A DNA stretch of 64,000 nt from an uncultured Chloroflexia bacterium (GTDB lineage: Bacteria > Chloroflexota > Limnocylindria > Limnocylindrales > CSP1-4). The notes beneath the pieces are model-generated. The model ran no database searches, was not told the DNA's origin, and was given only the letters and a program-made list of their open reading frames with translations. This document shows positions 1 through 20,961 of this stretch, in pieces; within the stretch, counting starts at the first letter, position 1, and each line of letters begins with the position of its first letter. The DNA lies in NCBI GenBank assembly GCA_963722105.1, contig CAVRKQ010000004.1, positions 101,759-165,758 of the forward strand, written 5' to 3'. A program made the translations under genes and the position numbers.

Positions 1-50
1 CCCGCTACGACGCGGCGACGGCCCTCCCTGGCGACGCCGAGCGCGCGTAC

Positions 51-1610
51 ATGCCCGCCGCCGACCGGCCGGAGCGCGTCTACGCGAGGCGCCCTCGCCC
101 AGCCGCCGGGGCCTCTGGCGGGGCCTCGGGCGGCGCGGAGCGCACGCGGGTCTCATCGCCAGAAAGCTTCGGGGTCAACAGCCGGGACGTGCGGCACTTC
201 CTGACCGAGCTCCGCACCCTCGGCGGGAGCCGTGCCACCGATGTCCTGAACGCAAAGCTCGCCCTCGATGCGACGGCCTACGCCGAGGCGCGTTCCTCAG
301 CCCTGGCGGCCGCGCGCGCATGGCGCGAGGGCGAGTGGACCTTCGCGCGTGAGGCTGCGTACGTCATCGCCCGAGGCAAGCTGTCCGGGTCGCCGATCGA
401 GCCGGCGGTCGCGACGATCGTCGCCGACATCGCGGGCGCCATCGTGGTCCGCGACCAGATCACCTCGCGCGAGTTCCTGCTGCTCCTCGCACCATGGTCC
501 GAGACGGCAACGCCCAGCGTGGCGACGCGTGAGCGACCGCAAAGAACCAGCACCCCTCGGCTCGCCGGGGTCGGCGCGCTGGCCGGACGAACGATGCGAT
601 CCGGGCGCACGGGGCTCGCCGGGCTGGGCGCGCTTGCCGGCCAGGCCGCACGATCGGGACGAACTGGGCTCAATGAGCTCAGCGGACTGGCCGAGCAGAC
701 GGTCCAGACCGGGCTCGAGGGGCTCGACGGGATCGGTGCCCGGGCCGGACAAGCGGTGCGATCTGGGCAAGCCGGGCTCAGTGGGCTCGGCGCGCTAGCT
801 GGACGAGCCGCCCCGACCGGCCAACGTGGCCGCGAAGCGGTCAGCGGGCCCGGCGAGGCGAGCTGGCCGGCCGACGGAACCGGGCGAATCGGGCTCGATG
901 GGCTTCGAGCGCCGGCCGGCTGGGCGATGCCGACCAACCTCTCCAAACCGGTCCGAAGCGGACCCACCAGGTTCGGCCGATCGCGACGGCCGCTGGCAAT
1001 CGGTGTTTCGGTGTCCGTGCTCATCGCGGTCATCGCGATCGCCGCCCTTGGTCGGATCCCGAAGCCCGAGACGGCCATCGCCGCGTTGACGGACGCCCCG
1101 CCGTCGTTCTCGGCCCTTGTCTCGCCCGGCGTTGCGGCCCCGTCGGCGTCCACGGGCATCGTCGGCCCGATCCTGCCAGGCGCGAGCCCCACGCCCGAGG
1201 TCGAGACGCCGGACGCGACCACCGAGGTCGATGCGACGCCGGTGCCCGCCGGGCCCCCAACGGCGCGTCCACCCGGCCCGACCCCGACGCCGAAGCCGGG
1301 CCAGACACCGAAGCCGACGCCGAAGCCGACGCCGCACCCCACGCCGCCGCCGACGTCGGCGCCGACACCCACACCCACGCCGACACCCACACCCGCGCCA
1401 ACCACGCCACCGACGACGTGCACCGTCATCAACCTCTTCAACGTGAACACGGGCAACGCGCAGGCCGCCTGGAACACCGCGGGGTTCACCGGGGTCGTGC
1501 TCTTCTCACCGCAGCCGCCACCGCAGTACAAGATCAAGTGGCAGAGCCTCGGCGCCGGGACCAGCGTGCCGTGCACGAGCGACATCAGCGTCCAGAAGAC
1601 CGCGCCCTGA
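51..1610 (+). CDS. Membrane-anchored repeat protein, family unknown. It has a conserved N-domain, about 8 degenerate G/A/R-rich 17-18-aa repeats (GLxGLGALAGxAxRSGRT), one TM helix, a Pro/Thr linker and a Cys-containing C-terminal module. The N-terminus may extend upstream of the window, as the frame is open back to position 3.
   Basis: 519-aa ORF. The N-terminal ~110 aa align with ORF 19291..20961 (SFGxNxxDVxxFLxEL...AYAxAR...REAAxxVAR...IAGxIxVRDxI...LLLxPW). TM segment LAIGVSVSVLIAVIAIAALG. PT-rich linker PTPTPKPGQTPKPTPKPTPHPTPP. Confidence 0.6.
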   Translation: MPAADRPERVYARRPRPAAGASGGASGGAERTRVSSPESFGVNSRDVRHFLTELRTLGGSRATDVLNAKLALDATAYAEARSSALAAARAWREGEWTFAREAAYVIARGKLSGSPIEPAVATIVADIAGAIVVRDQITSREFLLLLAPWSETATPSVATRERPQRTSTPRLAGVGALAGRTMRSGRTGLAGLGALAGQAARSGRTGLNELSGLAEQTVQTGLEGLDGIGARAGQAVRSGQAGLSGLGALAGRAAPTGQRGREAVSGPGEASWPADGTGRIGLDGLRAPAGWAMPTNLSKPVRSGPTRFGRSRRPLAIGVSVSVLIAVIAIAALGRIPKPETAIAALTDAPPSFSALVSPGVAAPSASTGIVGPILPGASPTPEVETPDATTEVDATPVPAGPPTARPPGPTPTPKPGQTPKPTPKPTPHPTPPPTSAPTPTPTPTPTPAPTTPPTTCTVINLFNVNTGNAQAAWNTAGFTGVVLFSPQPPPQYKIKWQSLGAGTSVPCTSDISVQKTAP

Positions 1611-1616
1611 CGGTCG

Positions 1617-2099
1617 CTACTTCCAGTCGACGGTGACGACCTCGACGGGCTCCGAGAAGCCCTTCAGCGTCTCGCTTCGGGCCTGCGAGATCGGGTAGGT
1701 GTCGCCCGCGGTCGAGGTGCTGGCGACGATCTCGCCGCCCTTCGCCAGCGCGGCGATGCGCGCCGCCTCGTGGACGCCGCGCCCGCGGTAGTTGTCGCCG
1801 ATGACGTTCGCGTCGGCGGCGTGCAGGCCGATCCGGACCGGCGGCGCGAAGCCCTGCTGCTGGCGGTGCTCGGCGAGGCGGCGCTGGATCGCGACCGCGG
1901 CAGCGACCGCCTGCTCCGGCGAGTCGAAGCCCACGAAGAAGCCGTCCCCGGTCGTCGAGATCTCCTTGCCCTGGTGGGCGCTGAAGACCTCCCGGATCGT
2001 CGCGTCGTGCCAGCGCAGGAGGGTGTCCCAGGCCTCGTCGCCCATCACCTCGACGAGGTTCGTCGACCCGACGACGTCGGTGAACATGAACGTCTTCAT
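1617..2099 (-). CDS. Stand-alone class III adenylate/guanylate cyclase catalytic-domain protein, about 160 aa.
   Basis: KTFMFTDVVGSTNLVEVMGDEAW...TTGDGFFVGFDSPEQAVAAAVAIQRRL...RIGLHAADA...YRGRGVHEAARIAALAKGGEIV is the canonical CHD fold. It is a paralogue of the cyclase domain in 17256..19238. Confidence 0.8.
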   Translation of the reverse strand: MKTFMFTDVVGSTNLVEVMGDEAWDTLLRWHDATIREVFSAHQGKEISTTGDGFFVGFDSPEQAVAAAVAIQRRLAEHRQQQGFAPPVRIGLHAADANVIGDNYRGRGVHEAARIAALAKGGEIVASTSTAGDTYPISQARSETLKGFSEPVEVVTVDWK

Positions 2100-2351
2100 G
2101 ACGCGCCGCTTCGGCTCGCTGCGGCCACGGAGCTGCCACGGCAGGAGCTCGGCGACGTCCTCGATGATGACGGCCGCGGTCGGGCAGGCGAACGCGGCCT
2201 CGCGCAGGAGCTCGTCCTCGACGCTGTCGGGGTCGACGACATCGGCCTTGCGAGAAGTCGCCGCGGAGCCAGTCGAAGGCCGTCGGCGCGATCGTGATGC
2301 AGTTGCCGGCGCCGATGCACTTGTGGCGATCGACCCGGACGCGGAGCGGCA

Positions 2352-5300
2352 TCAGCCCCTCACGGCGACCATGCTCGACGGCGGGGTCAGCCCCCGGAAC
2401 GCGAGCGATGTCGCCTCGGCCCGGCTCGACGTTCCGAGGCGGGCCAGGACGCGAGACAGGCGTTCGGCGAGGTCGGCCTCGGACATGTCCAGTGCGTCGG
2501 CCATCTCGCGGTTCGTCTGGCCCTCGGTCAGCAGGTGCATGATCCGGCGATCGAGGTCATCGAGGGACCCGACACCGTCGGCCGTGGCCTCCGCTCCAGC
2601 CGCCCGGGCCGGAGCCGCGACAATGGTGGGCTCGAGCCCGCCGGTGAGCTCGACCAGCTCGCGGCCGAGCGGGCCCCGCAGCCAGCGGACGCGCACCTGG
2701 TCGTCGAGGGTCGCCTGGGCGATACGCGACAGGACCAGCTGCAGGTAGCCCCGGATCCCCTCCTGCATCTCTGGCGGGCCGCCGGCGAAGACGCCCGCGA
2801 CTCGCGGACAACAGCGTCTCGAGGTGCGCGTCCTCGGTGAGCGACGCATCGAGCGCCTCGAACGCAGCGCCGCCCGCGGCTGCTGCCGCCGCGGACATCA
2901 CCGCGCGCCACGGCGATCTCGGCTCGCGCCGCGTCGGCCTGCGCGGCCCAGAGCGCGTGCCCGGGCAGCGAGGCCGCAAGCGCCGTCGCCTGGTCGGCGG
3001 CCTCCTCGGCGAGGGCGAGCAGCTCCGTGTCGGCGGTTCGTGCGCCCAGGCGCGCGGCCGTGATCGCGAGCCACGCGGCGACTTCGCAGCGGGCCACCGC
3101 GCCGGCGCGATTCGCGAGCGAGCCGGGCCTGCTCGAAGTGCAGGCGCAGCCCATCCGCGTCCCCCGCCGCGGCACGGGCTCGGCCGCGCCACAGCTCGAT
3201 CTGCCGCGTTCGCAGTCGGGGTCGGCGCGCTCGCGGCCACTGGCGCCGCGATATCGAGCCAGCGCTCCGCCTCCTCGATGTCGCCGAGCTCCAGGTGGGT
3301 CAGCGCCACACCGCCCGCGGCGCGGAACTCCGTCGCCTGGTCGCCGGCGAGCCTTGCGGCGCGGTACGCCTCCTCGCCGCGCGTTGATGGCGAGGTCCGG
3401 CACGACCTTGGCGCGCGCGAAGACATGCACGCCGAACAGCATCTGGAGCTCCTGCCGCTCCCGCTCGCTCTCGGTCACGAGCTCGGCGAAGCGCGAGGTG
3501 ACCCGTCGGATCTCCTCGAGGTGGCGCGCCGATGCGTTCAGGTGAATGGCCGGCGCGTAGTTGATGTAGGCCATGAGGATCACGGTCGACATCACGCCGG
3601 TGCGGTCGTCGAGGCGGATGAAGATCTCGAGCGCGCGCTCGCAGTGGCCCCTTGCGCGCATCACCAGCGGCGCGACCGGCTGGTCCTTCAGCACGGCGTC
3701 GAGCTCCTCGCCCGCGAGCACCCGCCGCGCGAGCTCCTGGACCTTCCCGGCCTTGACCTCGCCGACGAACCACGTCCGGACCCGCGACAGCGCCAGCATC
3801 CCGGCCTCGCGCTCCGCGGCCGCGAGGCTCCGCTCGTCGCCGAGCTCGGTCGCGAGCTCGATGGCCCGGGCGAACGCCTCCTCGGCGGCATCGACGTCGA
3901 CCTCGAGGTCCGAGACGCCGAACCCCTCGCCCAACGTCGACTGCGTCAGCGCCTGTCCGAGCTCGAGCGTCGCTCGCAGCTCCGATGTCGTGTCCCCATC
4001 CGCCGCGGCGCGCTCACGGACGCGACGCGCGAGCTCCGCGGCCGCGTCCTCGTCGTGGCCGGCTCGAAGCGCGGCGGCGCGGCGCAGCTGGACATCGATC
4101 TCGAGGGGTCGATCCTTCGAGGCCTCGGCCAGCGCACCGAGCTCGGCCAGGCCATCCAGCCGGTCGGTCGATCGGCGGAGCACGGCGAACGCGTCGTCGC
4201 GGCAGGCCAGCAGCGTCCGGCGATCGGCCACGGCCGACACGACCGGCAGCGCTGCCTCCACCAGTCGCAAGGCCTCTTCCGGCGCATTCGACTTGAGGGC
4301 CGCCGTGGCGGCGTCGATCGAGAACCGCGCCGCGCGCTCGTTGTCGCCCGCCGCGAGGGCGTGCTGGGCGAGCATCTGGAGACCCTCGGCGGGCGGCTCG
4401 CCGCCCTCGAGCAGGAGGTCGACCACCGCCCGATGGACCTCGCGCCGTCGGGCGTTCGAGAGCTGGGCCGTCGAGAAGTCGCGGACCTGCTCGTGGGTGA
4501 AGGTGTAGTCGGCGGCGTCGCCCTCGGGGTGCGGGAGCAGGAGGCCGGCTTCGACGGCCGGCGCGAGCGCTTCGGCGATCTCCGCCGCGCGGTCATCCGC
4601 GTCGCGGGCTGTCAGGCCCGCTGCCGCACCGGATCCCGCACCTCCGATGGTGACCAGGTCCCGAACGCTGAAGCTCCGGCCGAGGACGCCGGCGTCGCCG
4701 AGCAGGGCCAGCGTCGGGGCCGGGAGCCGCGCGGCCCGGCGCGAGATGAGCGTCCGAACCGCCGAGGGCACCAAGCGGGCCGCGTTCCGCCCGAGCCGCC
4801 ACTCCCCATCGCTCTGCTGGAGCGTGCCGGCCTCCCGATGCGTCCGGGCGAGCTCTTCGACGATGAAGGGGACGCCCTCGGACTGGGCGTGCATCGCGGC
4901 GACGGACTGGCCATCGACCGGGCCGCCGAGGACCTGGCGAAGGAGGAGCGCGGTCTCGGCGGCGGCAAACCTGGACACCCGGAGCCGGCGGACGAGGCCC
5001 ATCCGCTCCATGTCGGCGATGAAGTTGACTGCCTCGGCAACCTTGGCGAGCTCGTCCGAGCGGAAGTTGAGGAACAGGAAGACGGGCTGCTCGGCGACGC
5101 TCCGGATGGCGTAGCGGAGCATCCGGAGGGTGTCGTCATCGGCCCATTGGACGTCGTCGAGGAGCAGCGCGATCGGCTTCACCGTTGCCAGCTCCTGGAT
5201 CGCGATGCCCGCGAGGTCGAAGGTCCGGAGGAGCTTGGCGTCGGGCGAGAGCGTCTCGAAGCCCGGCTCGTCGCGGCCGCTGAGGGCGTCCGTCACGCGC

Positions 5301-5737
5301 CGGACCGCCACCTCCGCGCGGGTCCCGACGGCGGTCTCGCGGAGCGCGCCGTTCCCGAACAGGCTCCGGGCGACGAGGAATGGGCCGCGGATCTCCTCGT
5401 CAGCGGTGATCGCGACCGTGGCGAATCCGGCCGCCGTGGCCATCTCCGCGGCCGCGATGAGGAGCCGGGTCTTGCCGATGCCCGGCTCGCCCTCGAGCGT
5501 GACCGCGGTCAGGTGGTTCCTGGCGTCGCGGATGGACTGCTCGATCGCGGTGAGCTCCAGGGTCCGGCCGACGATCGACCCGGTCGCGCGCCGAAGCTGG
5601 ACGCTGAGCGAGCACTGCGGCTGGACGAGCGGGTCGAGCGCCTCGCCGTCGAGCAGCCGGAGGCCGGCGCCGCTTGCGGGCTCGGCAGCGCTCGCGACCG
5701 GGCCATTCGCGTCCGGCTTGTGTGCCTCCGCAACCAT
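2352..5737 (-). CDS. Large NACHT/AAA ATPase - TPR - LuxR-HTH transcriptional regulator (MalT/Rv0386-like, but without a cyclase domain). Reading through needs at least 3 frame changes, at about 3410, 3140 and 2860, so it is either a pseudogene or an indel-error artefact.
   Basis: N-terminal P-loop GEPGIGKTRLL, Walker-B LLLDDVQWADDDTL, TPR-like helical repeats and a C-terminal LuxR HTH (LTEGQTNREMADALDMSEADLAERLSRVLARLG in frame 2352..2849). Real-looking sequence switches between three frames (ORFs 2528..5737, 2557..3426, 2352..2849). Confidence 0.7.
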
Positions 5738-5771
5738 CGCGTTCGATTATGCGCGTGCCGTCCTGCGACAG

Positions 5772-5805
5772 GAAAAGCCGCCGGGTCCAAGCGGGCCCGG
5801 CGGCT
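5772..5805 (-). terminator. Intrinsic terminator-like hairpin downstream of the glsB-like gene. The stem is GCCGCCGGGTCC/GGGCCCGGCGGC, followed by a T-run on the minus strand.
   Basis: 12-bp stem with one mismatch, 4-nt loop, then TTTTCC on the minus strand. Confidence 0.4.
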
Positions 5806-5851
5806 CGATGCTCACGGTGTTGGCGCCGTCAGAGGGCGCCGGGTCTGGACC

Positions 5852-6157
5852 TCAGACCGGGCCGCTGCCCGTCCGGGTTCGCCCGCGAAGGGCATTCCAG
5901 CCGACCACGACGATCACGGCGCCGATGACGGCGACGATGATGGTGGTGAGGCTGAAGTCGTTGATGTAGTTACCGCCGGTGCCAGGCAGCAGCAGACCGG
6001 CGAGGAACCCGCCGACGAGCGCGCCGACGATGCCGAGCGCGATGTGCCCGATGACACCCATGCTCTCGTCACCCTTGACGAGGAAGCCGGCCAGGTAGCC
6101 GGCGATCGCCCCGACGACCAGCCACGAAATGATTCCCATGGGTTTCGACCCCTCCAT
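5852..6157 (-). CDS. GlsB/YeaQ/YmgE-family transglycosylase-associated small membrane protein. The true start is probably Met7 at 6139.
   Basis: MGIISWLVVGAIAGYLAGFLV...GIVGALVGGFLAGLLL is the typical fold. Three TM helices. Confidence 0.8.
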   Translation of the reverse strand: MEGSKPMGIISWLVVGAIAGYLAGFLVKGDESMGVIGHIALGIVGALVGGFLAGLLLPGTGGNYINDFSLTTIIVAVIGAVIVVVGWNALRGRTRTGSGPV

Positions 6158-6278
6158 GTTTGCTCGCGCGTCGTTCGACGCGCGCTTGGGCTACGTGAAC
6201 CATCGACCGGATGACGATACGCCTAGACAGCAGCCGGGATCGAACCTGAATCAGCCGCATGACGAGCGCAGCGGCGAG

Positions 6279-6758
6279 CTAGCCCGTGATCGACCCCAGG
6301 TGAGCCTCGGCCTGGAAGAGATTGATGCCGCTGTCGATGAGGTCGAGCAGCGCCCGCATCGTGCGCTCCTCCTCGACCTGCTCGGCGATGAACCACTGCA
6401 GGAACTCGAGGCTGCGGTGGTCGCCGGCGTCGCGAGCAGCCGCCGCAAGCGTGTTGAACAGGCCCGTGACCCTCGCCTCGTTGGCTCCTGCGGCCTCGAC
6501 GACGTCGCGCGCGGACGCGTAGGACGTGGGGGCACCTCGGACCGCCGGCAACGCGAACTTGATGTCGTTGTCGATCAGGAAGGTCATGATCCTGGCGCCG
6601 TGGCCCGCCTCCTCGACCGCCTGGTCGTGGAAGAGCTTGGCCCAGCCCTTGAGGCTCACGCGCTCGAAGTAAAGCGACATCCCCATGTAGGTCTGGTGCG
6701 CCGTCAGCTCGTGCGCGATCTGGGCCACGAGGAGCTTGGCGACCGGCTCGCTGATCAT
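6279..6758 (-). CDS. Ferritin-like protein (non-haem ferritin / bacterioferritin superfamily).
   Basis: MISEPVAKLLVAQIAHELTAHQTYMGMSLYFE...EEAGHGARIMTFLID...EFLQWFIAEQVEEE is the ferritin four-helix di-iron signature. The upstream part of the 232-aa ORF is Arg/Gly-rich junk. Confidence 0.8.
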   Translation of the reverse strand: MISEPVAKLLVAQIAHELTAHQTYMGMSLYFERVSLKGWAKLFHDQAVEEAGHGARIMTFLIDNDIKFALPAVRGAPTSYASARDVVEAAGANEARVTGLFNTLAAAARDAGDHRSLEFLQWFIAEQVEEERTMRALLDLIDSGINLFQAEAHLGSITG

Positions 6759-6775
6759 GCTGGAAGGGTACGTCG

Positions 6776-8362
6776 TCAGTCGCGCCACGGCGCAGGCGCC
6801 GGCCGGCCCAGCAGGTAGCCCTGGCCGAGCCCGACGCCCAGCCCCCGAAGCGCCTCGAGCTCCGCTTCTGTCTCGATGCCCTCCGCGATCAGCTCGCAGC
6901 CCGTCTCGCCGGCGAAGTGCACGAGGCCGGAAACCAGGGCCCGCCGGATCGGGTCCTCGTCGATGAGGCGGACCCACTCGATGTCGAGCTTCACGTAGTT
7001 CGGCTTGAGCGCGAAGATGTGGCGGAGGCTCGCGAATCCCGAGCCGGCGTCGTCGATCGCGAGGCGGACGTTCTGGCCCAGGCCCGCGAGCGCCGTCTTC
7101 ACCGCTTCGTAGTCGTCGATCCGCTCGTGCTCGGTGAGCTCGACGATGATCGTCCGATCGGTCGAGGCGAAGAGCTCGGGCAGCGACGGCTCGTGCTCGA
7201 TGACCTCCGCCGAGAGGTTGACGCTGAGCGCGACGCCGGGATCCAGGGACGCGACCCCCTCGACCGCGGCGGCGGCGGTTGCCCGCTGCAAGGCCGCCCC
7301 GAGCCCGATCGCGGCCGCCTCCTCGAACACGACGTCCGGCGCGGTGCCGTCGGCGAACCGCGTCAGCGCTTCCACGGCGACGAGCTCCCGCGACTCGAGC
7401 CGGACGATCGGCTGGAAGACCATCGTGAAGGCCCGATCGGCAATCAGCGTGCGCAGCCGCGTGATGGCGGCATCCGCGGTCTCCGCGCGCTCGACGGCCG
7501 GGCGCAGGACGACCACGATCTGACCGGTCGCGTCGATCAGGTCCGGCAAGCGGTGCGACATCGGCGCGCCGCGCCCGGCGGGTCGGAGGGCATAGACGAG
7601 GCAGCCCAGCGGCGCCCCGCCCGCGCCGAGGCGGAACGGAACGTAGGCGGCATCCACGAGCCAGCCGTCGGAGACCGACGGCGCCTTGCCGCTGTCAGTC
7701 CAGGGGCTGCTGGAGGCGCGGGCCGCGATCTCGCTCCCGAGTGGCTCATCGATCGCCCGCCCCGGCGGGAACCGCGACTCGAGGATGCCGCTCGCCGCAA
7801 TGCTCCGGACGGCGTCGCCACCGAAATGGAGGATCGCGACGCCGTCGACGCCGAGCGCGCTCGGGATCTGCTTCGTGAGCTCGGCGGCGAGCTCCAGGAG
7901 CGACCCGCTCTTGGTGAGCCCCTCGAGCATCGCGTTCAGGTTGCGCCGGACCTCACGACCCTGCTCCAGCTCTGAGGTCCAGGCGGTTCGCTCCCGCAGC
8001 TGCGCCCGCACGCGAGCCGTCAGCTCGCGGACCCGGACCGGTTTCCCGAGGTAGTCGTCCGCACCGAGCTCGAGGCCGCGGATCCGCTCGGTCTCATTGA
8101 TCGACCCGGTCACGAGGATCACCGGCAGCGTCTTGAACCGGTCGCTGGCGCGGATCTGGCGGAGCGTCCGGAGGCCGTCGAGGAACGGCATGTCGACATC
8201 GAGCAGGACGACATCGAAGGCCTGCTCGTCCAGCCTGGCGAGGGCGTCGCGACCGTTCGTGGCGAGGACCGTTTCATAGCCCTCGCGCGCGAGGGCGGCT
8301 TCGAGGTACGCGCGGGTCGCCGCGTCGTCGTCAGTGATCAGGACGCGCGGATTCTTCGCCAC
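6776..8362 (-). CDS. Response regulator with REC, a GAF-like middle region and an EAL c-di-GMP phosphodiesterase domain.
   Basis: REC: VLITDDDAATRAYLEAAL...VVLLDVDMPFLDGL...PVILVTG. EAL: FTMVFQPIVRLESRELVAVEALTRF...LAIDDAGSGFASLRHIFALKPNYVKLDIEWV...ELIAEGIETEAELEALRGLGVGLGQGYLLGRP. Confidence 0.85.
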   Translation of the reverse strand: MAKNPRVLITDDDAATRAYLEAALAREGYETVLATNGRDALARLDEQAFDVVLLDVDMPFLDGLRTLRQIRASDRFKTLPVILVTGSINETERIRGLELGADDYLGKPVRVRELTARVRAQLRERTAWTSELEQGREVRRNLNAMLEGLTKSGSLLELAAELTKQIPSALGVDGVAILHFGGDAVRSIAASGILESRFPPGRAIDEPLGSEIAARASSSPWTDSGKAPSVSDGWLVDAAYVPFRLGAGGAPLGCLVYALRPAGRGAPMSHRLPDLIDATGQIVVVLRPAVERAETADAAITRLRTLIADRAFTMVFQPIVRLESRELVAVEALTRFADGTAPDVVFEEAAAIGLGAALQRATAAAAVEGVASLDPGVALSVNLSAEVIEHEPSLPELFASTDRTIIVELTEHERIDDYEAVKTALAGLGQNVRLAIDDAGSGFASLRHIFALKPNYVKLDIEWVRLIDEDPIRRALVSGLVHFAGETGCELIAEGIETEAELEALRGLGVGLGQGYLLGRPAPAPWRD

Positions 8363-10143: not shown

Positions 10144-11403
10144 TTGGCATTGCATCTGCGCCTGCGCCGGAGAACCGTCATCGTCCGAACCGCCTTCGTC
10201 TCCACGTACCCGCCCCGCCGCTGTGGGATCGCCACGTTCACGAGCGATCTGGCCTCGGTGACGCCCGACAGCGAGATCGCGGTCCTGCACCCGGGCGGCT
10301 CGGCCCTGACCTACCCCCTGAAGGTGCATCACCGGATCCGCAAGCACGAGCTGGCGGACTACCGCCGCACTGCCCAGGACCTGAACCGGTGCGTGGACGT
10401 CGTCTCGATCCAGCATGAGTACGGGATCTGGGGCGGCGAGGATGGCGAGCACGTGCTCGACTTCGTCCGCGCCCTGCGCGTCCCATCCGTCGCGACACTC
10501 CACACCGTGCTGCGCGACCCGACGCCCCACCAGCGCTCCGTCCTGGAGGACCTGGTCGCGACCGCGGAGAAGACCGTCGTGATGTCGCGCTCGGCCGCCA
10601 ACCTGCTCATCAGCGCCTACGACGTGGATCCCGATCGCCTGCAGGTCATCCCGCACGGCGTGCCCAACGTGCCGCTCGTCGATTCCGCGACGGTCAAGCC
10701 GGCCCAGGGAATCAAGGATCGCGACGTGGTCCTGAGCTTCGGCCTGCTCGGCCCCGGCAAGGGCTACGAGCTCGCGATCGAGGCACTGCCGGCGATCGCG
10801 GCGGCGCACCCGGACGTCCTGTACGTCATCGTCGGCGCGACGCACCCGGACCTGATCAGCACCGAGGGCGAGGCGTACCGCGAGAAGCTGCAGGCTGCGA
10901 TCGCGCGGCTGGACATGGAGCGCCACGTCCGGTTCATCGATCGGTTCGTCGGTCGGGACGAGCTCACCCGCTGGCTCCAGGCTGCCGACGTCTTCGTCAC
11001 GCCCTATCCGAACCTCGGCCAGATCGTGTCCGGGACCATGTCCTACGCGATGGGCGCCGGTCGCGCGGTCGTCTCGACGCCCTACACCTACGCCTCGGAG
11101 CTCCTGGCGGATGGCCGCGGGGTGCTCGTCGAGCCCGGTTCGGCGGCGGCGCTCGCCGACGGCGTGGCCTCGGTTCTCGGCGACCCGGAGCTGCGCGCGG
11201 CGATCGGCCGACGGGCCCATGCCCACAGCCGGCGGATGATCTGGCCTGCCGTCGGCACGGAATACAGCTCGGCTCTTCAAGGCGACCGCGCAGGGTTCGC
11301 GCGCCGGCTCGCCGGTCAGGACGGGCGTCCCGATCCATGCTTGAGGACGTCACGCCGGACGCCACGCTGGCGCCCCTGTACCCGATCAGCCGGAAGCACC
11401 TGA
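10144..11403 (+). CDS. GT4-family glycosyltransferase, paralogue of 42742..43872. The start may be a later GTG near 10175-10185. The 3' end overlaps the next gene by about 66 nt.
   Basis: AFVSTYPPRRCGIATFTSDL...GLLGPGKGYELAIEALPAIAAAHPDVLYVIVGATHPD...FVTPYP...E(x)7E-like C-terminal GT-B fold. About 55% identical by eye to 42742..43872. Confidence 0.75.
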   Translation: MALHLRLRRRTVIVRTAFVSTYPPRRCGIATFTSDLASVTPDSEIAVLHPGGSALTYPLKVHHRIRKHELADYRRTAQDLNRCVDVVSIQHEYGIWGGEDGEHVLDFVRALRVPSVATLHTVLRDPTPHQRSVLEDLVATAEKTVVMSRSAANLLISAYDVDPDRLQVIPHGVPNVPLVDSATVKPAQGIKDRDVVLSFGLLGPGKGYELAIEALPAIAAAHPDVLYVIVGATHPDLISTEGEAYREKLQAAIARLDMERHVRFIDRFVGRDELTRWLQAADVFVTPYPNLGQIVSGTMSYAMGAGRAVVSTPYTYASELLADGRGVLVEPGSAAALADGVASVLGDPELRAAIGRRAHAHSRRMIWPAVGTEYSSALQGDRAGFARRLAGQDGRPDPCLRTSRRTPRWRPCTRSAGST

Positions 11404-12533
11404 AGGTCATGGGCGGCGAGCTCGGCATCTTCCAGCACGCGAAGGGCTCCCTGCCGGATCCCGAGCACGGCCACTGCGTCGACGACGTCGCGCGCGCGCT
11501 CGAGGTCGACCTCCTCCACGCACGGACCCTCGGCTGGGCCCCGGTCGCCGAGAGCGCCCGCCGCAACATGCAGTTCCTCGAGGACGCCTTCGACGAGCCG
11601 AGCGGCCGCTTCCTGAACTTCCGCACCGTCGCCGGCGAGTGGACCGGCGGTCCCGGCTCCAACGACAGCCTCGGCCGCGCGATGCTGGCCCTCGGCGAGA
11701 CGATCGCCGCGGCACCCGAGGCGCGCCTCGTCGAGCAGGCCCTCGAGCTCTTTGCCCGCGCGCTCAAGGCCGCCCGCCGCGTGACCTCGCCGCGAGCCCA
11801 GGCATCGGTCGTCCTCGGATGCGCCGCCGTCGCACGCTCGTCCGCGATCGCGAGCTCCACGGAGGTGCGGGACATGGCCCTCGCGCGCGACGTGCCCGTC
11901 GTCATGCGCACCCTCGCGACCGGCCTCCACGCCCAGTTCCTGACCTACGCCGAGCCCGGCTGGCCCTGGCCGGAGGACGCGCTGACCTACGAGAACGCGC
12001 TCCTCCCGCGGGCGCTCATCGTCGCCGGCCAGCGCGGCCGAGCGGAGACGATGGTCGATGATCGGGCTCCAGGTGCTCGACTGGCTCATCGACGTCCAGA
12101 CGGCACCCGAAGGCCACCTCTCCCCGATCGGGCAACGGCTGGTGGCCGATCGAACGGCGAACGATCCAGGTTCGACCAGCAGCCGATCGAGGCGACCGCG
12201 CTGCTGCTCGCCGCCGAGGCTGCCTACGCGGCCACGGGGAATCCGCGCTACCGGGCCGCGATGGAGCGGGCATACGCCTGGTTCCTCGGCGAGAACGACC
12301 TCGGCGTGCGCATCGCCCATCCGGCCCGCGGGGCCGGCTCCGACGGACTGACGCCCAAGGGCATGAACCGCAACGAGGGCGCCGAGTCGACGCTGATGTG
12401 GCTCATGCGCCGCCGAGCACATCCGTGCGCTCCGCGCCGCCAAGCCGCGGGTGCATCGGTCCCGCTGCCGCCCGGGCGCGTCGCCGCGTCCCGCGTCGGC
12501 GCCGCTGCTCGTGCGTCCCGGTCGCCGGCGTGA
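11337..12533 (+). CDS. Uncharacterised (alpha/alpha)6-barrel-like putative glycoside hydrolase between GT4 and GH130. It needs two frame changes, at about 12050 and about 12170.
   Basis: MLEDVTPDATLAPLYPISRKHLKVMGGELGIFQHAKGS... then MIGLQVLDWLIDVQTAPEGHLSPIG in frame 12058..12351, then ...ATALLLAAEAAYAATGNPRYRAAMERAYAWFLGENDLGV. The stop overlaps the GH130 GTG (GTGA). Confidence 0.5.
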   Translation: MLEDVTPDATLAPLYPISRKHLKVMGGELGIFQHAKGSLPDPEHGHCVDDVARALEVDLLHARTLGWAPVAESARRNMQFLEDAFDEPSGRFLNFRTVAGEWTGGPGSNDSLGRAMLALGETIAAAPEARLVEQALELFARALKAARRVTSPRAQASVVLGCAAVARSSAIASSTEVRDMALARDVPVVMRTLATGLHAQFLTYAEPGWPWPEDALTYENALLPRALIVAGQRGRAETMVDDRAPGARLAHRRPDGTRRPPLPDRATAGGRSNGERSRFDQQPIEATALLLAAEAAYAATGNPRYRAAMERAYAWFLGENDLGVRIAHPARGAGSDGLTPKGMNRNEGAESTLMWLMRRRAHPCAPRRQAAGASVPLPPGRVAASRVGAAARASRSPA

Positions 12534-13493
12534 CCGCCCGAGTCCCGCTGTTCCGGCGGTCGGACCTGAACCCGATCCTGACCGCCGCCGATGTCCCCTA
12601 CCCCGCCAACAGCGTCTTCAATCCCGGTGCGGCCCGGATCGGCGACGAGACGATCCTGCTCGTCCGCGTCGAGGACCTGCGCGGCATCTCCCAGCTCCAC
12701 GTCGCGCGCAGCAAGGACGGCGAGTCGGGCTGGACGTTCGACCCCGAGCCGCTGCTCCGCGCCGACGTCGATCGCGACCCCGAGGAGACCTGGGGCTGCG
12801 AGGACCCCCGCGCTGACCTGGCTGCCCGAGCGCGAGGAGTGGGCGATCGCCTACACCGCGTACAGCCGGCGCGGCCCGCTCGTCTCGCTGGCCACCACGC
12901 GCGACTTCCAGACCGTCCGCCGCCTCGGGCCGGTCATGCCGCCCGAGGACAAGGACGCGGCGATGTTCCCGCGCCGGTTCGGCAACCGCTGGGCGATGAT
13001 CCATCGACCTTCGCCCCTCCGCGGCGGCGCCCACATGTGGGTCTCCTACTCGCCGGACATGCGCCACTGGGGCGACCACAAGCTGCTGCTCGAGGCGCGC
13101 GACGGGGCCTGGTGGGACGCCGGCAAGATCGGCCTCGGGCCACCGCCGCTCGAGACGCCCGAGGGCTGGCTCGTCATGTACCACGGGGTCCGCGTGACGT
13201 CCGACGGACCGATCTACCGGGCCGGGCTGGCGCTCCTCGACCTCGAGGACCCGGGAACCGTGCTCCATCGCTCCGACGAATGGGTGTTCGGGCCCGAAAC
13301 GCCCAATGAGATGATCGGCGACGTCGGGCGGGTCGTGTTCCCGTGCGGGTGGATCCACGACCCCGAGACGGACGACCTCGCCCTGTACTACGGCGCCGCG
13401 GACACGGTCATCGGCCTCGCGACCGGCAAGCTCAGCGACGTCATCGCGACGGTCAAGGCGGCACCCGTACCGAAGCGCAAGACGCGGCGCTAG
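12530..13493 (+). CDS. GH130-family glycoside hydrolase / beta-mannoside phosphorylase-like protein (DUF377 fold). It has one frame change, at a C5 run around 12805-12812.
   Basis: RSDLNPILTAADVPYPANSVFNPGAARIGDETILLVRVED...WGCEDPR | LTWLPEREEWAIAYTAYS...GWLVMYHGV...VFPCGWIHDPETDDLALYYGAADTVIGLA. Confidence 0.75.
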
Positions 13494-13529
13494 CCGCGGC
13501 CTCGCGCCGACGAGGAGCCGCCGCCCAGG

Positions 13530-14744
13530 TCAGCGCAGGCCGATCGCCAACGTGTGGGTTCTGAGCACGATCGAGCCCGTGCCGAACAGCGTCACCTTGA
13601 GCTCGTAGGTCGCCGGCTTGGCGAGGCCCTTCGTGCTGAGATTGAAGATGAACTGGTTCGCGCCCGCGTCGTAGCGGAAGCAGTTGCCCGCGTGTGGCTG
13701 GTTGCTGTTGACCGTCTCGTCGACCGCCGGCGCGCCACTTCCGATGCGCACGAGCGAGATCTGCAGCGCACAGGCGCCAGCGAGCTCGCCGGCTGCGGCA
13801 TCGGAGAACAACGCCCCGGCGGCATCCCGTAGCGCGAACTTGACGGGCACCGTCGAGCCGCCCTTGAAGACGCTCATTGGGCTCGATGCCGAGATCGGGT
13901 CGTTCAGGGGCTGGAAGAAGCTGGAGATCGTCGGCGGCGCCACCGTGACAGCCACGAACGGCGAGAGCGACGTGGTCTCGCCGCAGATGGTCTCGGGTCC
14001 GAGATTTCCCTCGATCGTGATGTCGACCCACGCGCCACCCTCGAAGTGGAGCAGCGCCGTTGGGGCTGGCGTCACTCCCGCGAAGTTGAGGCAGACCGTG
14101 ATCGAGCCGCTGATCGTCGCTGTCGTCTGGAGGTCGTAGAACCGCGGCGGGCTGCCGAGCTGGAAGCCCGCCGGGAGCGCCGGCCCTGTCGAGCTCGTGG
14201 TCACGGTCGTGACACCAGAAGACGTCACGTTCTCGAAGATCACCTGGTGCGGCGTCGGCACGCCGTTCTCCCCAGGCGACGTCTGGACGTTCCCCCCGGT
14301 CGGCGTGTTGCCGGCACCAGGGTTCGGGCTCGGCCCGAAGCTGGGCTGAGGCGCGTCAAACCCGGTACAGGTGTACTGCAGGGAAAGCGCGTTGCCATCG
14401 ACGTCGGTGCTCGCGGTCACGAGCGTGTCCTCGCCCGTGATGACCTCGAAGTGGGCGGTGCTCTGGTTGGTCTGGCCGTTCGGAACCTGGAACGTGCCCG
14501 CCACGGCGAACTCCGCAGTCAGCGTGATCGGGTCGGACTCCCATCCCGAGAGAACGAAATGCCAGAGGACCAGACCGGGGTCGAGTGGGTCCGGGCACGA
14601 GATGTGGAAGTCGGGATCGTCCCAGGTGACTCCCTCGTGCGACGGGACCAGGTCCTGCGCGGAGACGACGGCGACCGCCGAGAACGCCAGCACCACAGTT
14701 GACACGCCTGCCAGCAGGCGCATGCGATTTCGCCCGGTTGCCAC
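13530..14744 (-). CDS. Secreted hypothetical protein with a signal peptide. No recognisable catalytic motif.
   Basis: MRLLAGVSTVVLAFSAVAVVSAQD is a signal peptide. 404 aa, rich in T/S/G, with scattered Cys pairs. Confidence 0.6.
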   Translation of the reverse strand: MATGRNRMRLLAGVSTVVLAFSAVAVVSAQDLVPSHEGVTWDDPDFHISCPDPLDPGLVLWHFVLSGWESDPITLTAEFAVAGTFQVPNGQTNQSTAHFEVITGEDTLVTASTDVDGNALSLQYTCTGFDAPQPSFGPSPNPGAGNTPTGGNVQTSPGENGVPTPHQVIFENVTSSGVTTVTTSSTGPALPAGFQLGSPPRFYDLQTTATISGSITVCLNFAGVTPAPTALLHFEGGAWVDITIEGNLGPETICGETTSLSPFVAVTVAPPTISSFFQPLNDPISASSPMSVFKGGSTVPVKFALRDAAGALFSDAAAGELAGACALQISLVRIGSGAPAVDETVNSNQPHAGNCFRYDAGANQFIFNLSTKGLAKPATYELKVTLFGTGSIVLRTHTLAIGLR

Positions 14745-17181: not shown

Positions 17182-17255
17182 CGAGCGCGATTGTGCCGCA
17201 GCCGACGACGAGGCAAGCCGAGTCGTGGCGACGTTCGGCGTACGATCCTGACGCC

Positions 17256-19238
17256 ATGACCCAGACGCTCGAGGCCGGCAGGGACGCGGCGACGCGCCAC
17301 GACTGGGCGGCTGCCGTCGCTGCACTCACCGAGGCCGATCGGGACGGTGGACTGTCCGGTGAGGACCTCGAACTGCTCGGCACGGCGTCGTGGTGGCTCG
17401 CCAAGCCGGAGGAGTCCGCCGGGGTCCTCGAGCGCGCGTTCAACGCGTACTCGAAGGAAGGCCGTCGCCTCGACGCCGCCCGGGTGGCGATGAGCCTGGC
17501 CTACCAGGCGTATCGAGGCCTTTCGGGCCCGGCGGGCGGCAGCTGGTCGGCTCGGGCAGAACGTCTCCTCGCGAACGAGCCCGAGAACCGACTGCACGCT
17601 CGGGCTCTGATGTACCAGGCGCAGGCAGCGATCTACGCGGGCCGGCTCGATCAGGGCGTGGAGCTTGCCGACAAGGCGATCGAGATCGCGCGCCGTCACG
17701 ACGCCGCGGACGAGCTGCAGATGGCCATTTCATTCCGCGGCATCGCCAAGCTGTTGGCGGGCGATCTCGCGGCCGGGATGCAGGACATCGACGAGAGCGC
17801 CGCGGCCGCATCGAGTGGGCAGCTGGACCTCCGCATCTCGAGCGACATCTTCTGCGTGGCCATCGGAGGCTGCCGCAGGGTCGGCGACCTCGAGCGCGCC
17901 GGCCAATGGGCGGACGAGGGCGAGCGCTGGATGGAACGCAACGGCGCGGGTGGGTTCCCGGGCGTCTGCAAGGTCCACCGGGCCGAGCTCAAGATGTTCC
18001 GCGGCGACTGGTCGGGGGCCGAGCAGGAGGCCCGCGCGGCGTGCGACGAGCTCCAGCGGTTTCGCCTGCTCGATGGCCTCGGGTTCGCGCACAACGCGAT
18101 CGGGGAGGTTCGCCTGCGAATGGGAGATCTCGATGGCGCGGCGACCGAGTTCGATCAAGCCTACGAGCATGGTCACGACGCCCAACCGGGCCTTGCCCTG
18201 CTCCAGCTGGCTCGAGGCGAGATCGACGATGCGCGGCGCTCGCTGGGCCGGGCACTCGCCGGGGCGAGCGGCGGTGGCGGGCCTGCGGATCTTGCCAATC
18301 GGGCGAATCTCCTCCCCGCCCAGGTCGAGATCGCCCTCGCCGCGGGCGACCTCGATGCCGCCCGGGCGGCGGTCGAGGAGCTCGAGTCGATCGCAACTGG
18401 CTTCGAGCGACCGTTCTTCAAGGCCGGCGCCCTGACGGCTCGCGGCGAGCTCCTCCTGGGCGAGCGGAAGCCCGTCGAGGCGTCGCCCGTGCTCGATCAG
18501 TCGTGGCGGCTGTGGCAGACCCATGACCTGCCCTACGAGGCGGCTCGGGCCAGGCTGCTGTACGGCGAGGCGCTCGCGGCCGAGGGCGACCAGGCGATGG
18601 CCAGGCGCGACCTGCTCGCGGCGCGATCGACATTCGACCGACTTGGCGCGCGGCTGGACGTCGAGCGCGTCGACAAGCTGCTCGGTCCGGACGCGGGCAC
18701 GGCCGCGGCGGCCCGGTCCGGCGAGCGCGTCGAGCGGACCTTCATGTTCACCGACATCGTCGTCTCGACCGATCTCGTCGGGATCATGGGCGATGACGCG
18801 TGGGGCGAGCTCCTGCACTGGCACGACCGCGAGCTGCGGGCTTCCATCGCGGAGCACAACGGCCTCGAGGTCAGCCACACCGGCGACGGCTTCTTCGCGG
18901 CCTTCGACCGGGCAACCGATGCGATCGCCTGCGCCGTGGACATCCAGCGCCGGCTCGTGCGCCACCGGCGCGAGCATGGCTTCGCGCCGTGGGTCCGCAT
19001 CGGCCTGCACAGCGCGGAGGCCACGCGCGAGGGTGGCAACTATCGAGGCCAGGGCGTCCACGTGGCGGCGCGGGTCGGTGCTGCTGCCGATCGGGAGGAG
19101 ATCGTCGTCTCGAGCTCGGTGGTGGAGGCGGCCGGGCGCGTCCCGTTCGCGCTGTCCGAGCCGCGGTCCGCGAAGCTCAAGGGCCTGAAGGAGCCGGTCG
19201 AGCTGCGGTCCGTCGAATGGCGGGCCGCGCCACACTAG
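17256..19238 (+). CDS. TPR-like helical-repeat sensor domain fused to a class III adenylate/guanylate cyclase catalytic domain.
   Basis: About 480 aa of TPR-like helices, then RTFMFTDIVVSTDLVGIMGDDAW...HTGDGFFAAFDRATDAIACAVDIQRRL...RIGLHSAEA...YRGQGVHVAARVGAAADREEIVVS. The start is chosen at Met22 of ORF 17193..19238. Confidence 0.8.
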   Translation: MTQTLEAGRDAATRHDWAAAVAALTEADRDGGLSGEDLELLGTASWWLAKPEESAGVLERAFNAYSKEGRRLDAARVAMSLAYQAYRGLSGPAGGSWSARAERLLANEPENRLHARALMYQAQAAIYAGRLDQGVELADKAIEIARRHDAADELQMAISFRGIAKLLAGDLAAGMQDIDESAAAASSGQLDLRISSDIFCVAIGGCRRVGDLERAGQWADEGERWMERNGAGGFPGVCKVHRAELKMFRGDWSGAEQEARAACDELQRFRLLDGLGFAHNAIGEVRLRMGDLDGAATEFDQAYEHGHDAQPGLALLQLARGEIDDARRSLGRALAGASGGGGPADLANRANLLPAQVEIALAAGDLDAARAAVEELESIATGFERPFFKAGALTARGELLLGERKPVEASPVLDQSWRLWQTHDLPYEAARARLLYGEALAAEGDQAMARRDLLAARSTFDRLGARLDVERVDKLLGPDAGTAAAARSGERVERTFMFTDIVVSTDLVGIMGDDAWGELLHWHDRELRASIAEHNGLEVSHTGDGFFAAFDRATDAIACAVDIQRRLVRHRREHGFAPWVRIGLHSAEATREGGNYRGQGVHVAARVGAAADREEIVVSSSVVEAAGRVPFALSEPRSAKLKGLKEPVELRSVEWRAAPH

Positions 19239-19290: not shown

Positions 19291-20961
19291 GTGCGAGAAT
19301 TCGAGATCCGTCTCATCGACAGCGCCACCAGCTTGGAGGAGCACGTGGAACTCGTCGGAGCCAAGATGATTCCCGTTCCAGTGGGCAATCCGTCGTTCGG
19401 CGGGAACGCCGCGGACGTCGAGCAGTTTCTCGCCGAGCTCCAGCGCCTGGACAGGCGTCGAGCCTTCGTCGTGTGGTCGGGTCGGACGGGGGTCGACTCG
19501 TACGCGTACGCGACCGCCCGGCAGCGCGCCGAAGCCGTCGCCATCGAGCAGCGAAACGCTGCCTGGATTGCCACGCGCGAGGCCGCCGAGTCGGTCGCCC
19601 GGGCCGCCCTCGACGACTCGGCGCTGTCGACCCAGGTCGTCTCGATCGTCAGCGAGATCGCCGGCATCGTCGCCGTCCGCGATCTCATCTCCGTCGAGGA
19701 TTTCGACCTGCTCCTGCTGCCCTGGACACGCCGCGGCGGGGAGCCTGCGACGAGGATCCACCACTGGCATTCAATGGCCGAGGCGACGGCCGAGGTCCGT
19801 CCGGCCGCGGAAGCGGAACGTGCGGGCGAGCAGCCCCAGGAGGAGACCACGGTGGCAGAGGACCTGAGGATCGTCGATGTGATTCGGCTCGATGCGGAGG
19901 AGACCGCCGCCGTCGCCGAAGCCGGACGGATCGCCGAGGAGGCGCGACGAGCGCAAATCGGCGAGCCGGCCAACACTCCCCCGCCGTCCGAGGAAGCGCG
20001 CCTCGAGGCTGCTCGGGCGACCGCCGCGGCAGAGGCCGAGCGCCTGGCGGCCGAGGACCGGCTGGCGGAGAACGCGCGCCTTGCGGACGCGGCGCGTCTC
20101 CAGGCGGAGCGGGCCGCGGCCACCGCGGAAGCGCAGCGAATCGCCGAGCGAGCTCGTCTCGGCGAGGAGGCGCGGCTGACGGAAGAATTGCGGCTCGCAG
20201 ACGAGGCTCGGGTACGGGCCGAGCGCGCGGCCACGGCGTCCCAGGCGGTGAACGACGCCGAGGACGCGATGTTGGCGCTGGTGGCCCGCCAGGCGCACGA
20301 GGCGCGGACCGCCGAAGCCTCTCGGCTCGCGGATCAGGGTCGTCTCATGGCGAGGGCTGCGCTGGCGGAAGAGGCCCGAAGGAAGGCGCAACGGTCCGTC
20401 GACCTCGCGGTATCGGAGCGATCGGCCGCCGAGGCTCGGCTCGCCGAGGCGATGCGCCTGGCCGAAGCGGCCCGGGCCGCCGAGGAACAGCACCGTGCAG
20501 ACTTCGCGCGGGCGACCGCCGAGGCTCGACGCGAGGAGGCGGCACGGGCGGACGCCGAGCGCGCCGCTTTCGCCGCCGCGGCCGTGCGGCTGACCGCGGA
20601 GGGTCGACTCGCCGAGCAGGCCGAGTCCGCCGAGCGCGCCCAGGCCGAGATGGAACGCACGGTCGCGGGGGCCGAGGAAGGCCGCCAAGCCGCGCGCGAA
20701 GCGGCGGATCGCCTGGGGGCGTTCCGTGCCGCCGAGGAGGACGCCCGCGCAGAGGCTGCTCGATTGGCCACGCTCGCCGCGGCTCGCACGAAGCCTTCCA
20801 CCCCTCCACGTGCGATGCGGCGGCCGCGCCCGGCAGCGGCATGGAAGATCGGCTCCCCCCGGTTCCGTCAGGCGGTCTCGGACTCGCGTCCCGCCGCGGT
20901 GGCGATCGTCGGGGTCGCTCTCGTCGCGGGCAGGGTCCTCTGGCGGATCGCGAGAGGCTGA
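19291..20961 (+). CDS. Tail-anchored repeat protein, paralogue of 51..1610. It has the same N-domain, then a ~350-aa charged helical array of A-R-L-x-E-E / AERAAAxAEAxR repeats, then a C-terminal TM.
   Basis: The N-domain aligns with ORF 51..1610. It has a long low-complexity coiled-coil-like segment and a C-terminal TM helix, AVAIVGVALVAGRVLWRIA. Confidence 0.65.
   Translation: MREFEIRLIDSATSLEEHVELVGAKMIPVPVGNPSFGGNAADVEQFLAELQRLDRRRAFVVWSGRTGVDSYAYATARQRAEAVAIEQRNAAWIATREAAESVARAALDDSALSTQVVSIVSEIAGIVAVRDLISVEDFDLLLLPWTRRGGEPATRIHHWHSMAEATAEVRPAAEAERAGEQPQEETTVAEDLRIVDVIRLDAEETAAVAEAGRIAEEARRAQIGEPANTPPPSEEARLEAARATAAAEAERLAAEDRLAENARLADAARLQAERAAATAEAQRIAERARLGEEARLTEELRLADEARVRAERAATASQAVNDAEDAMLALVARQAHEARTAEASRLADQGRLMARAALAEEARRKAQRSVDLAVSERSAAEARLAEAMRLAEAARAAEEQHRADFARATAEARREEAARADAERAAFAAAAVRLTAEGRLAEQAESAERAQAEMERTVAGAEEGRQAAREAADRLGAFRAAEEDARAEAARLATLAAARTKPSTPPRAMRRPRPAAAWKIGSPRFRQAVSDSRPAAVAIVGVALVAGRVLWRIARG

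Follow-up and report, generated by a model that had tools for sequence, protein, structure and literature searches.

J-domain proteins determine where and on what Hsp70 works. Several class C members are anchored in the bacterial inner membrane, such as DjlA and the tail-anchored DjlB and DjlC of Escherichia coli (PMC8215388), with the J-domain acting in the cytoplasm, where it must meet DnaK (PMC8215388). In large surveys, about half of the noncanonical J-domain proteins are annotated as "J-domain only" (PMC10410713). Here, we describe a gene at the left edge of a 64-kb stretch of an uncultured Chloroflexota bacterium of the order Limnocylindrales (64,000 nucleotides of contig CAVRKQ010000004.1, referred to below as the window), together with a second gene in the same window that shares one of its domains. 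Both open reading frames (ORFs), 51..1610 (copy 1) and 19291..20961 (copy 2), had been listed in an earlier sequence-only reading and are present as given there. Copy 1 is best explained, and we consider this fairly probable, as the window-truncated gene of a class C J-domain protein with 602 aa and a bitopic (N-in/C-out) topology, an Hsp70 co-chaperone with a PASTA-like ectodomain. The full-length protein would consist, in this order, of a J-domain, a six-helix domain, a linker with repeats, a transmembrane (TM) helix, a Pro/Thr stalk, and a PASTA-like end domain, and its family would count among the "J-domain only" proteins of such surveys.

The evidence for the J-domain lies largely outside the window. 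Copy 1 had been taken to start at position 51, but its frame, with the stop codon at 1608-1610, is open back to base 3, and the translation from that base (535 residues) is an exact substring of a database protein of 602 aa (P0001), beginning at its residue 68. The ATG at position 51 is therefore an internal methionine and not the start. The possibility that the ORF continues upstream of the window, raised in the sequence-only reading, turned out to be the case: the first 67 codons are located there and contain nearly the whole J-domain. Hence, the shared domain, previously described as N-terminal, is internal in copy 1, where it is the second domain behind the J-domain. In P0001, Pfam DnaJ (PF00226) covers residues 10-70 with 46.4 bits (gathering cutoff, 27.8), and the HPD motif is found at residues 38-40. 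An orthologue of 494 aa, encoded in a contig of a “Candidatus Limnocylindrales” metagenome-assembled genome (MAG) (L001), also begins with Pfam DnaJ (51 bits; cutoff, 27.8), and its alignment to the window starts at R-Y-D, the end of its DnaJ domain. If the truncation is as we propose, the 201 nucleotides 5' of base 3 would encode MSRGSIPRFDLYEELEVS...HPD...KRA in frame.

None of the features of class A or B Hsp40s (G/F region, zinc finger, or C-terminal beta-sandwich) was detected in P0001 and nine relatives, in which Pfam sees the J-domain alone. This result, together with a linker that has no Phe behind the J-domain, places the copy 1 protein in class C. The reading frame itself is supported by the conservation of the helical domain, the TM helix, and the Cys module, all in one frame, in L001 and 20 metagenome loci.

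Copies 1 and 2 share a colinear, ungapped stretch of 112 aa (BLASTP, 44% identity, E=1e-21, composition-adjusted). The Smith-Waterman score of this pair was 212, versus 32.7 ± 6.0 when the second sequence was shuffled 2000 times with its composition preserved (z ~30), so that low complexity is not the driver of the similarity. The compositional artifact that the sequence-only reading had named as one possible refutation was thus ruled out, and the two ORFs can be considered true paralogues linked by a common globular domain. The regions behind the shared domain are unrelated between the two copies, as had been claimed, and tblastn found no third copy in the window. An AlphaFold2 (AF2) model of the domain, obtained from a 44-sequence alignment, consists of six helices (pLDDT, 90.4; pTM, 0.79), the first 13 model residues, on the linker side, being of low confidence. 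No match to the helical domain was found in Pfam (E≤1, both ORFs), NCBIfam, or PDB, nor did Foldseek retrieve any match to the model in PDB and BFVD (best E>1, TM-score<0.3). DivIVA and FHA, two families to which the domain might have belonged, were ruled out by the lack of any Pfam or NCBIfam match. The N-terminal part of copy 1, used as the query of a word-indexed protein search, gave zero matches, the query's own protein included, while the same kind of search with family alignments gave 5 and 16 unnamed matches. The previous statement that the domain could not be assigned and might be undescribed therefore stands for Pfam, NCBIfam, and PDB, but not for the PHROGs v4 collection, where the phage family phrog_8332 (“unknown function”) matched both copy 1 (E=2.2e-6) and copy 2 (E=2e-8).

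Behind the helical domain, copy 1 has an array of 18-aa repeats, with five contiguous in-register units at nucleotides (nt) 543-812 and two degenerate ones reaching nt 929 (consensus RSGRTGLAGLGALAGQAA); shuffled controls in the unit scan averaged 0.7 matches. TRF found a 54-nt period at 559-671. The repeats that had been noticed before are thus real, although their number is about five to seven and not about eight, and the L001 orthologue has a linker of ~60 aa instead, without a counterpart of the array. The TM helix corresponds to residues 398-416 of the 602-aa protein and is found at the same position in ~40 family members. The flank preceding the helix has a charge of +5 and the one behind it a charge of 0. 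Based on this asymmetry and on the need for a cytoplasmic J-domain, the topology of copy 1 is predicted to be N-in/C-out, which would place the J-domain, the helical domain, and the repeats inside the cell and the stalk and the PASTA-like module outside. Within the stalk, hexamer and 18/30-nt DNA repeats were detected at 1278-1399.

The protein ends in a module of 67 residues. In an alignment of 27 members (A7), the residues C, V, W, F, P, WQ.L, and C are invariant. The mid-protein TM helix, the Pro/Thr linker, and this small C-terminal Cys module had all been recognized by the sequence-only reading and were found again here, the module with two Cys. PASTA (PF03793) was the only recurrent Pfam match, in 5 of the 27 modules, with a best E value of 0.0033. 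These matches fall short of the curated threshold, and no PASTA chain was found when PDB sequences were searched with the profile of the Cys module. A direct comparison by hhalign of A7 with a PASTA profile, made of six units from Mycobacterium tuberculosis PknB (2kui) and Staphylococcus aureus Stk1 (3m9g) taken from PDB alignments, gave a probability of 88.9% (E=2.4e-6, 56 columns), with both domains aligned end to end. As a control, the helical-domain profile reached 0.07% against the same PASTA set. The Cys module is, then, likely homologous to PASTA domains, and its two invariant Cys would probably be able to form a disulfide outside the cell. A single-sequence AF2 model of the whole copy 1 ORF had a pLDDT of 42, with values of <50 in the region of the end module.

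Copy 2 shows a different layout, which is also found in the relatives P0002 and P0030. Pfam detected no DnaJ domain in it, and its helical domain is followed by a ~370-aa Ala/Glu/Arg-rich helical region and, near the C terminus, by a hydrophobic segment with an internal Arg. Judging from this segment, the protein is probably tail-anchored, with the remainder in the cytoplasm, by an anchor weaker than the TM helix of copy 1. The two copies had been described as anchored in opposite ways; their anchoring is different rather than opposite, since both are predicted to be N-in.

To define the family, we searched 1.84 billion representative proteins with a two-sequence profile made of both window domains, which gave 80 matches (59 of them at E<1e-10), the best being P0001. 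Soil metagenomes and one Limnocylindrales (Chloroflexota) MAG are the sources of the ~55 related cluster representatives. L001 was the single related locus in a scan of one genome per species, and a metagenome scan with the profile of a 7-sequence alignment found relatives encoded in 21 soil-metagenome loci. Approximately 36 of the 52 examined representatives have a J-domain with HPD (at about residue 38), the shared domain at ~105-240, a variable Pro/Ala/Arg-rich linker, one TM helix, and 160 to 290 further residues. The two-Cys module forms the end of 24 representatives; others have a different extracytoplasmic region of ~270 residues, in which Pfam finds no match. Around 15 representatives are devoid of a J-domain; part of them retain both TM helix and Cys module, and others have an Ala/Glu/Arg-rich helical region instead. 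In one soil locus (L012, 4088-5910, + strand), a tandem pair of family genes was found. The first gene encodes 298 aa, comprising the J-domain and the helical domain, and ends just past the latter, with ectodomain remnants in another frame; the second has a degenerate J-domain without HPD.

The sequence-only reading had interpreted both ORFs as envelope scaffold, cytoskeletal, or surface-display proteins, unconnected with chaperones and made of an N-terminal domain followed by low-complexity arrays that vary between them. Both proteins do have membrane segments and long stretches of repeats or low complexity, the arm of copy 2 is typical of spacer or coiled-coil proteins, and the ~15 members without a J-domain would also fit. 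However, copy 1 and ~36 representatives carry a bona fide J-domain with HPD, and J-domains are known only as partners of Hsp70 (PMC8215388, PMC10410713). Besides, in copy 1 both the shared domain and the repeats are predicted to be on the cytoplasmic side and hence would not be surface displayed. We regard the scaffold interpretation as improbable and replace it with that of a membrane-anchored Hsp70 co-chaperone.

As such a co-chaperone, the protein would most likely work as follows. At the inner face of the membrane, the J-domain would dock DnaK (Hsp70) and trigger its ATPase, while the helical domain would pick the client or partner, or else mediate self-association and hetero-association with the paralogues that lack a J-domain. 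Outside, the PASTA-like domain could bind a cell wall component and either localize the protein or report the status of the wall. A J-less paralogue such as copy 2 might engage the same partner without recruiting DnaK, as an adaptor or a competitor. A bolder version, which we offer as speculation with a small chance of being right, is a transmembrane link between the cell wall and Hsp70: a PASTA-type sensor wired to a J-domain instead of a kinase, in which wall ligands (muropeptides or lipid II) would govern the place or the timing of DnaK activation at the membrane, selection of the client would fall to the six-helix domain that phage early proteins also contain, and the J-less paralogues would be antagonists or adaptors.

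The relationship with phages deserves separate consideration. The match of both copies to phrog_8332 spans profile positions ~127-245 of 248, i.e., the C-terminal half only. In members of this phage family, the shared domain is preceded by a DUF7666 region at the N terminus. The window copies have no DUF7666 region; its place is taken by the J-domain in copy 1 and by a 34-residue N terminus in copy 2. The signature common to the window domain and phrog_8332 is FG(P)N..V..F(L/I) at the start and VRDLI..(E/D)F..L..PW at the end. The phage members differ from the window proteins in being soluble, in their size (180 to 230 aa), in having DUF7666 instead of the J-domain, and in that the middle helices are replaced by Ala/Trp/Asp-rich pseudorepeats. 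Compared with gp40 of Propionibacterium phage E6 alone, only the last helix aligns. The weak matches of our profile search were standalone proteins of 120 to 170 residues, which hhalign related to the family profile with a probability of 99.3% (E=5e-20), and tblastn of two such standalone relatives (P0074 and P0062) against plasmids and phages gave no matches. Phage relatives were located at L023 8001-8369, L024 8001-8558, and L025 3492-4178, the last being E6 gp40, annotated as “hypothetical protein.” In three independent contexts (two metagenomic prophage-like contigs and phage E6), these phage relatives adjoin YqaJ/RecT or RecE/RecT recombination genes in early regions.

These matches raise the alternative that the helical domain has a phage origin or relation of the phrog_8332 type and that the family takes part in phage-host conflict, for instance as a membrane sensor, a decoy, or the host target of a phage early protein, coupled to DnaK. 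In addition to the matches of both window copies, the standalone relatives in prophage or phage early regions beside YqaJ/RecT or RecE/RecT would agree with it, as would the neighboring STAND-type AAA/TPR/LuxR genes and the cyclase genes, which have weak matches to Pycsar cyclases. Nevertheless, PADLOC gave no credible match for either paralogue, the lone match of P0001 covering the TM helix and the Pro/Thr stretch, no phage genes are found nearby in the window, the gene is located within conserved chromosomal synteny in L001, L004, L005, and L010, and the phage proteins share chiefly the first and last helices. We therefore give the phage-conflict alternative little credence, about as little as the scaffold interpretation. 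Assignment to a known defense system was ruled out, given that the PADLOC matches were weak or of low complexity.

Next to copy 1, with which it converges, there is a gene for a ferredoxin (4Fe-4S) plus class III cyclase-domain protein, which comes after a large minus-strand AAA/TPR/LuxR gene. A TPR plus class III cyclase-domain gene is located upstream of copy 2, and no promoter-like or terminator-like site was found in the 52-bp gap between them. The two cyclase domains (1617-2099, minus strand, and 18726-19223, plus strand) are 55% identical and are the only ones in the window, so that each cyclase-domain gene adjoins one of the only two shared-domain genes, in different arrangements. A simple segmental duplication of a pair made of a cyclase and a shared-domain gene was ruled out because gene orders and orientations differ. 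In L001, L004, L005, and L010, the ferredoxin-cyclase gene is also found 0 to 5 kb from the J-protein gene, and this recurring proximity is suggestive, with all loci coming from one lineage.

From these data, it could be argued that the shared domain is tied to cyclic-nucleotide signaling, either binding or regulating the neighboring class III cyclase-domain proteins or being regulated by their product, with the J-domain and PASTA as accessories. The adjacency of the sole two cyclase-domain genes to the shared-domain genes (across a convergent gap of 6 bp in one case and a codirectional gap of 52 bp in the other) and its recurrence in the four loci speak for such a tie. On the other hand, shared ancestry can explain the synteny, as the loci are all from one lineage; copy 1 and its cyclase neighbor are convergent and thus not cotranscribed; and other genes intervene in L010 and L004. 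We take the cyclase connection to be unlikely, to about the same degree as the wall-sensing version outlined above, and keep the co-chaperone interpretation of copy 1.

Other genes of the neighborhood are of interest as well. Just past the LuxR-type gene, the window has a response-regulator receiver plus EAL (cyclic di-GMP phosphodiesterase) gene at 6776-8362 and a small “transglycosylase-associated” (GlsB/YeaQ-type) membrane protein gene at 5852-6157, both on the minus strand, which add to the nucleotide-signaling character of the neighborhood. In L001, two dynamin-family GTPase genes (4265-7647, plus strand; Pfam Dynamin_N, with weak PADLOC matches to LeoA/LeoBC) are separated by 39 bp from the J-protein gene downstream and may form an operon with it; such genes are not present upstream of the J-protein gene in L010 or L004. 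A glycosyltransferase/glycosidase cluster at 10144-13493 (plus strand) of the window is syntenic with L012 767-4009 (63 to 85% amino acid identity), where it lies directly upstream of the J-protein genes, and a second glycosyltransferase copy was found in the window at 42742-43872.

Three genes of the window are frameshifted with respect to their orthologues in L001 and L012. These are the ferredoxin-cyclase gene (1617-2355, minus strand; site at ~nt 2250, as seen from tblastn frames -2/-3), the AAA/TPR/LuxR gene (2352-5737, minus strand; ~2810-3430), and a glycosidase-like gene (12530-13532, plus strand; ~12807-12811). Either indel errors of the assembly or pseudogenes could be the cause.

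Several observations weigh against the interpretation of copy 1 as a J-domain co-chaperone with a PASTA-like ectodomain. No Hsp70 gene was found in the window or in the fetched loci. The ~15 family members that lack a J-domain, copy 2 among them, indicate that the core function of the shared domain is independent of DnaK. Any role attributed to the helical domain is pure inference; its sole relatives are phage proteins without a known function. The Cys module of the window copy gave no Pfam match, membership in PASTA remaining below the gathering score. Finally, with at least three other genes of the window frameshifted, the assembly may carry indel errors and ORF limits need care; given these frameshifts and the lack of an orthologous counterpart, the repeat stretch of copy 1 is not fully vouched for. 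The coordinates of all the features are summarized in Table 1.

Table 1. Coordinates (in the window) and supporting evidence of copy 1, copy 2, their parts, and the adjoining cyclase-domain genes
Feature	Position	Strand	Evidence or remarks
Partial coding sequence, putative bitopic membrane J-domain protein (copy 1)	1..1610	+	Frame from nt 3; last 535 of 602 codons
J-domain end, last three residues R-Y-D	3..11	+	Alignment with L001 orthologue and P0001
Ala/Arg/Pro/Gly-rich linker, J-domain to helical domain; includes internal Met at nt 51	12..161	+	Composition
Shared six-helix domain, copy 1 (P0001 residues 121-235)	162..506	+	BLASTP, AF2, phrog_8332
18-aa Gly/Ala/Arg/Leu repeat array RSGRTGLAGLGALAGQAA, predicted cytoplasmic juxtamembrane linker	543..929	+	Unit scan, TRF
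Single TM helix LAIGVSVSVLIAVIAIAAL, N-side basic flank RFGRSRRP	993..1049	+	Kyte-Doolittle (KD) 2.8 over 19 aa
Predicted extracytoplasmic Pro/Thr/Ala-rich stalk	1056..1406	+	P 32%, T 20%
PASTA-like module, two invariant Cys (codons 1419-1421, 1572-1574)	1407..1607	+	27-member alignment A7
Ferredoxin (4Fe-4S) plus class III cyclase-domain gene	1617..2355	-	Pfam; convergent with copy 1, 6-bp gap; frameshift at ~nt 2250
TPR plus class III cyclase-domain gene	17193..19238	+	Pfam; 52 bp upstream of copy 2, same strand
Paralogue without J-domain, 556 aa (copy 2)	19291..20961	+	Short N terminus, helical domain, helical arm, hydrophobic tail
Shared six-helix domain, copy 2	19393..19731	+	BLASTP; phrog_8332
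C-terminal hydrophobic segment AAVAIVGVALVAGRVLW of copy 2	20893..20946	+	KD 2.33 over 15 aa, 1.89 over 19 aa; internal Arg

The family illustrates what “J-domain only” proteins can hide: a confidently folding helical domain without a curated or solved relative and a membrane-spanning layout with a PASTA-like, probably wall-binding domain predicted to be outside the cell. If this layout works as we infer, it would represent a route from envelope status to cytoplasmic chaperone activity in Chloroflexota and a first clue to what the phage family phrog_8332 does.

Functionally, copy 1 is closest to DjlA, DjlB, and DjlC, class C J-domain proteins anchored in the membrane, with which it has in common an HPD J-domain, predicted for copy 1 to be on the cytoplasmic face of the membrane, and a non-DnaJ specificity region, without class A/B domains (PMC8215388). 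Unlike these proteins, which have no ectodomain, that of copy 1 has a central TM helix and ~185 residues predicted to be outside, including the PASTA-like domain, and its six-helix domain has no counterpart in them. In DjlA, the TM helix is N-terminal and the J-domain C-terminal; this order is reversed in the copy 1 protein, where the J-domain occupies residues 10-70 and the TM helix residues 398-416 of 602. ARC6 and Ftn2 (ZipN) of chloroplasts and cyanobacteria also share this overall plan: they begin with a J-like domain, continue with a region in the cytoplasm or stroma that binds partners, and cross the membrane once, with the C-terminal domain on the far side. The far-side domain is a different one, and no sequence relation to ARC6 or Ftn2 was detected, Pfam finding DnaJ alone in P0001. 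In the literature searched, we found no paper joining a J-domain with a PASTA domain. The predicted arrangement of a cytoplasmic effector, one TM helix, and an extracytoplasmic PASTA-like part is that of the PASTA receptors (the kinases PknB/PrkC/Stk1, PBP2x, and PonA2), although the effector here is a J-domain plus a novel helical domain and not a kinase or transpeptidase, and there is one PASTA-like unit instead of two to four, below the Pfam PASTA threshold, with two invariant Cys and a long Pro/Thr stalk.

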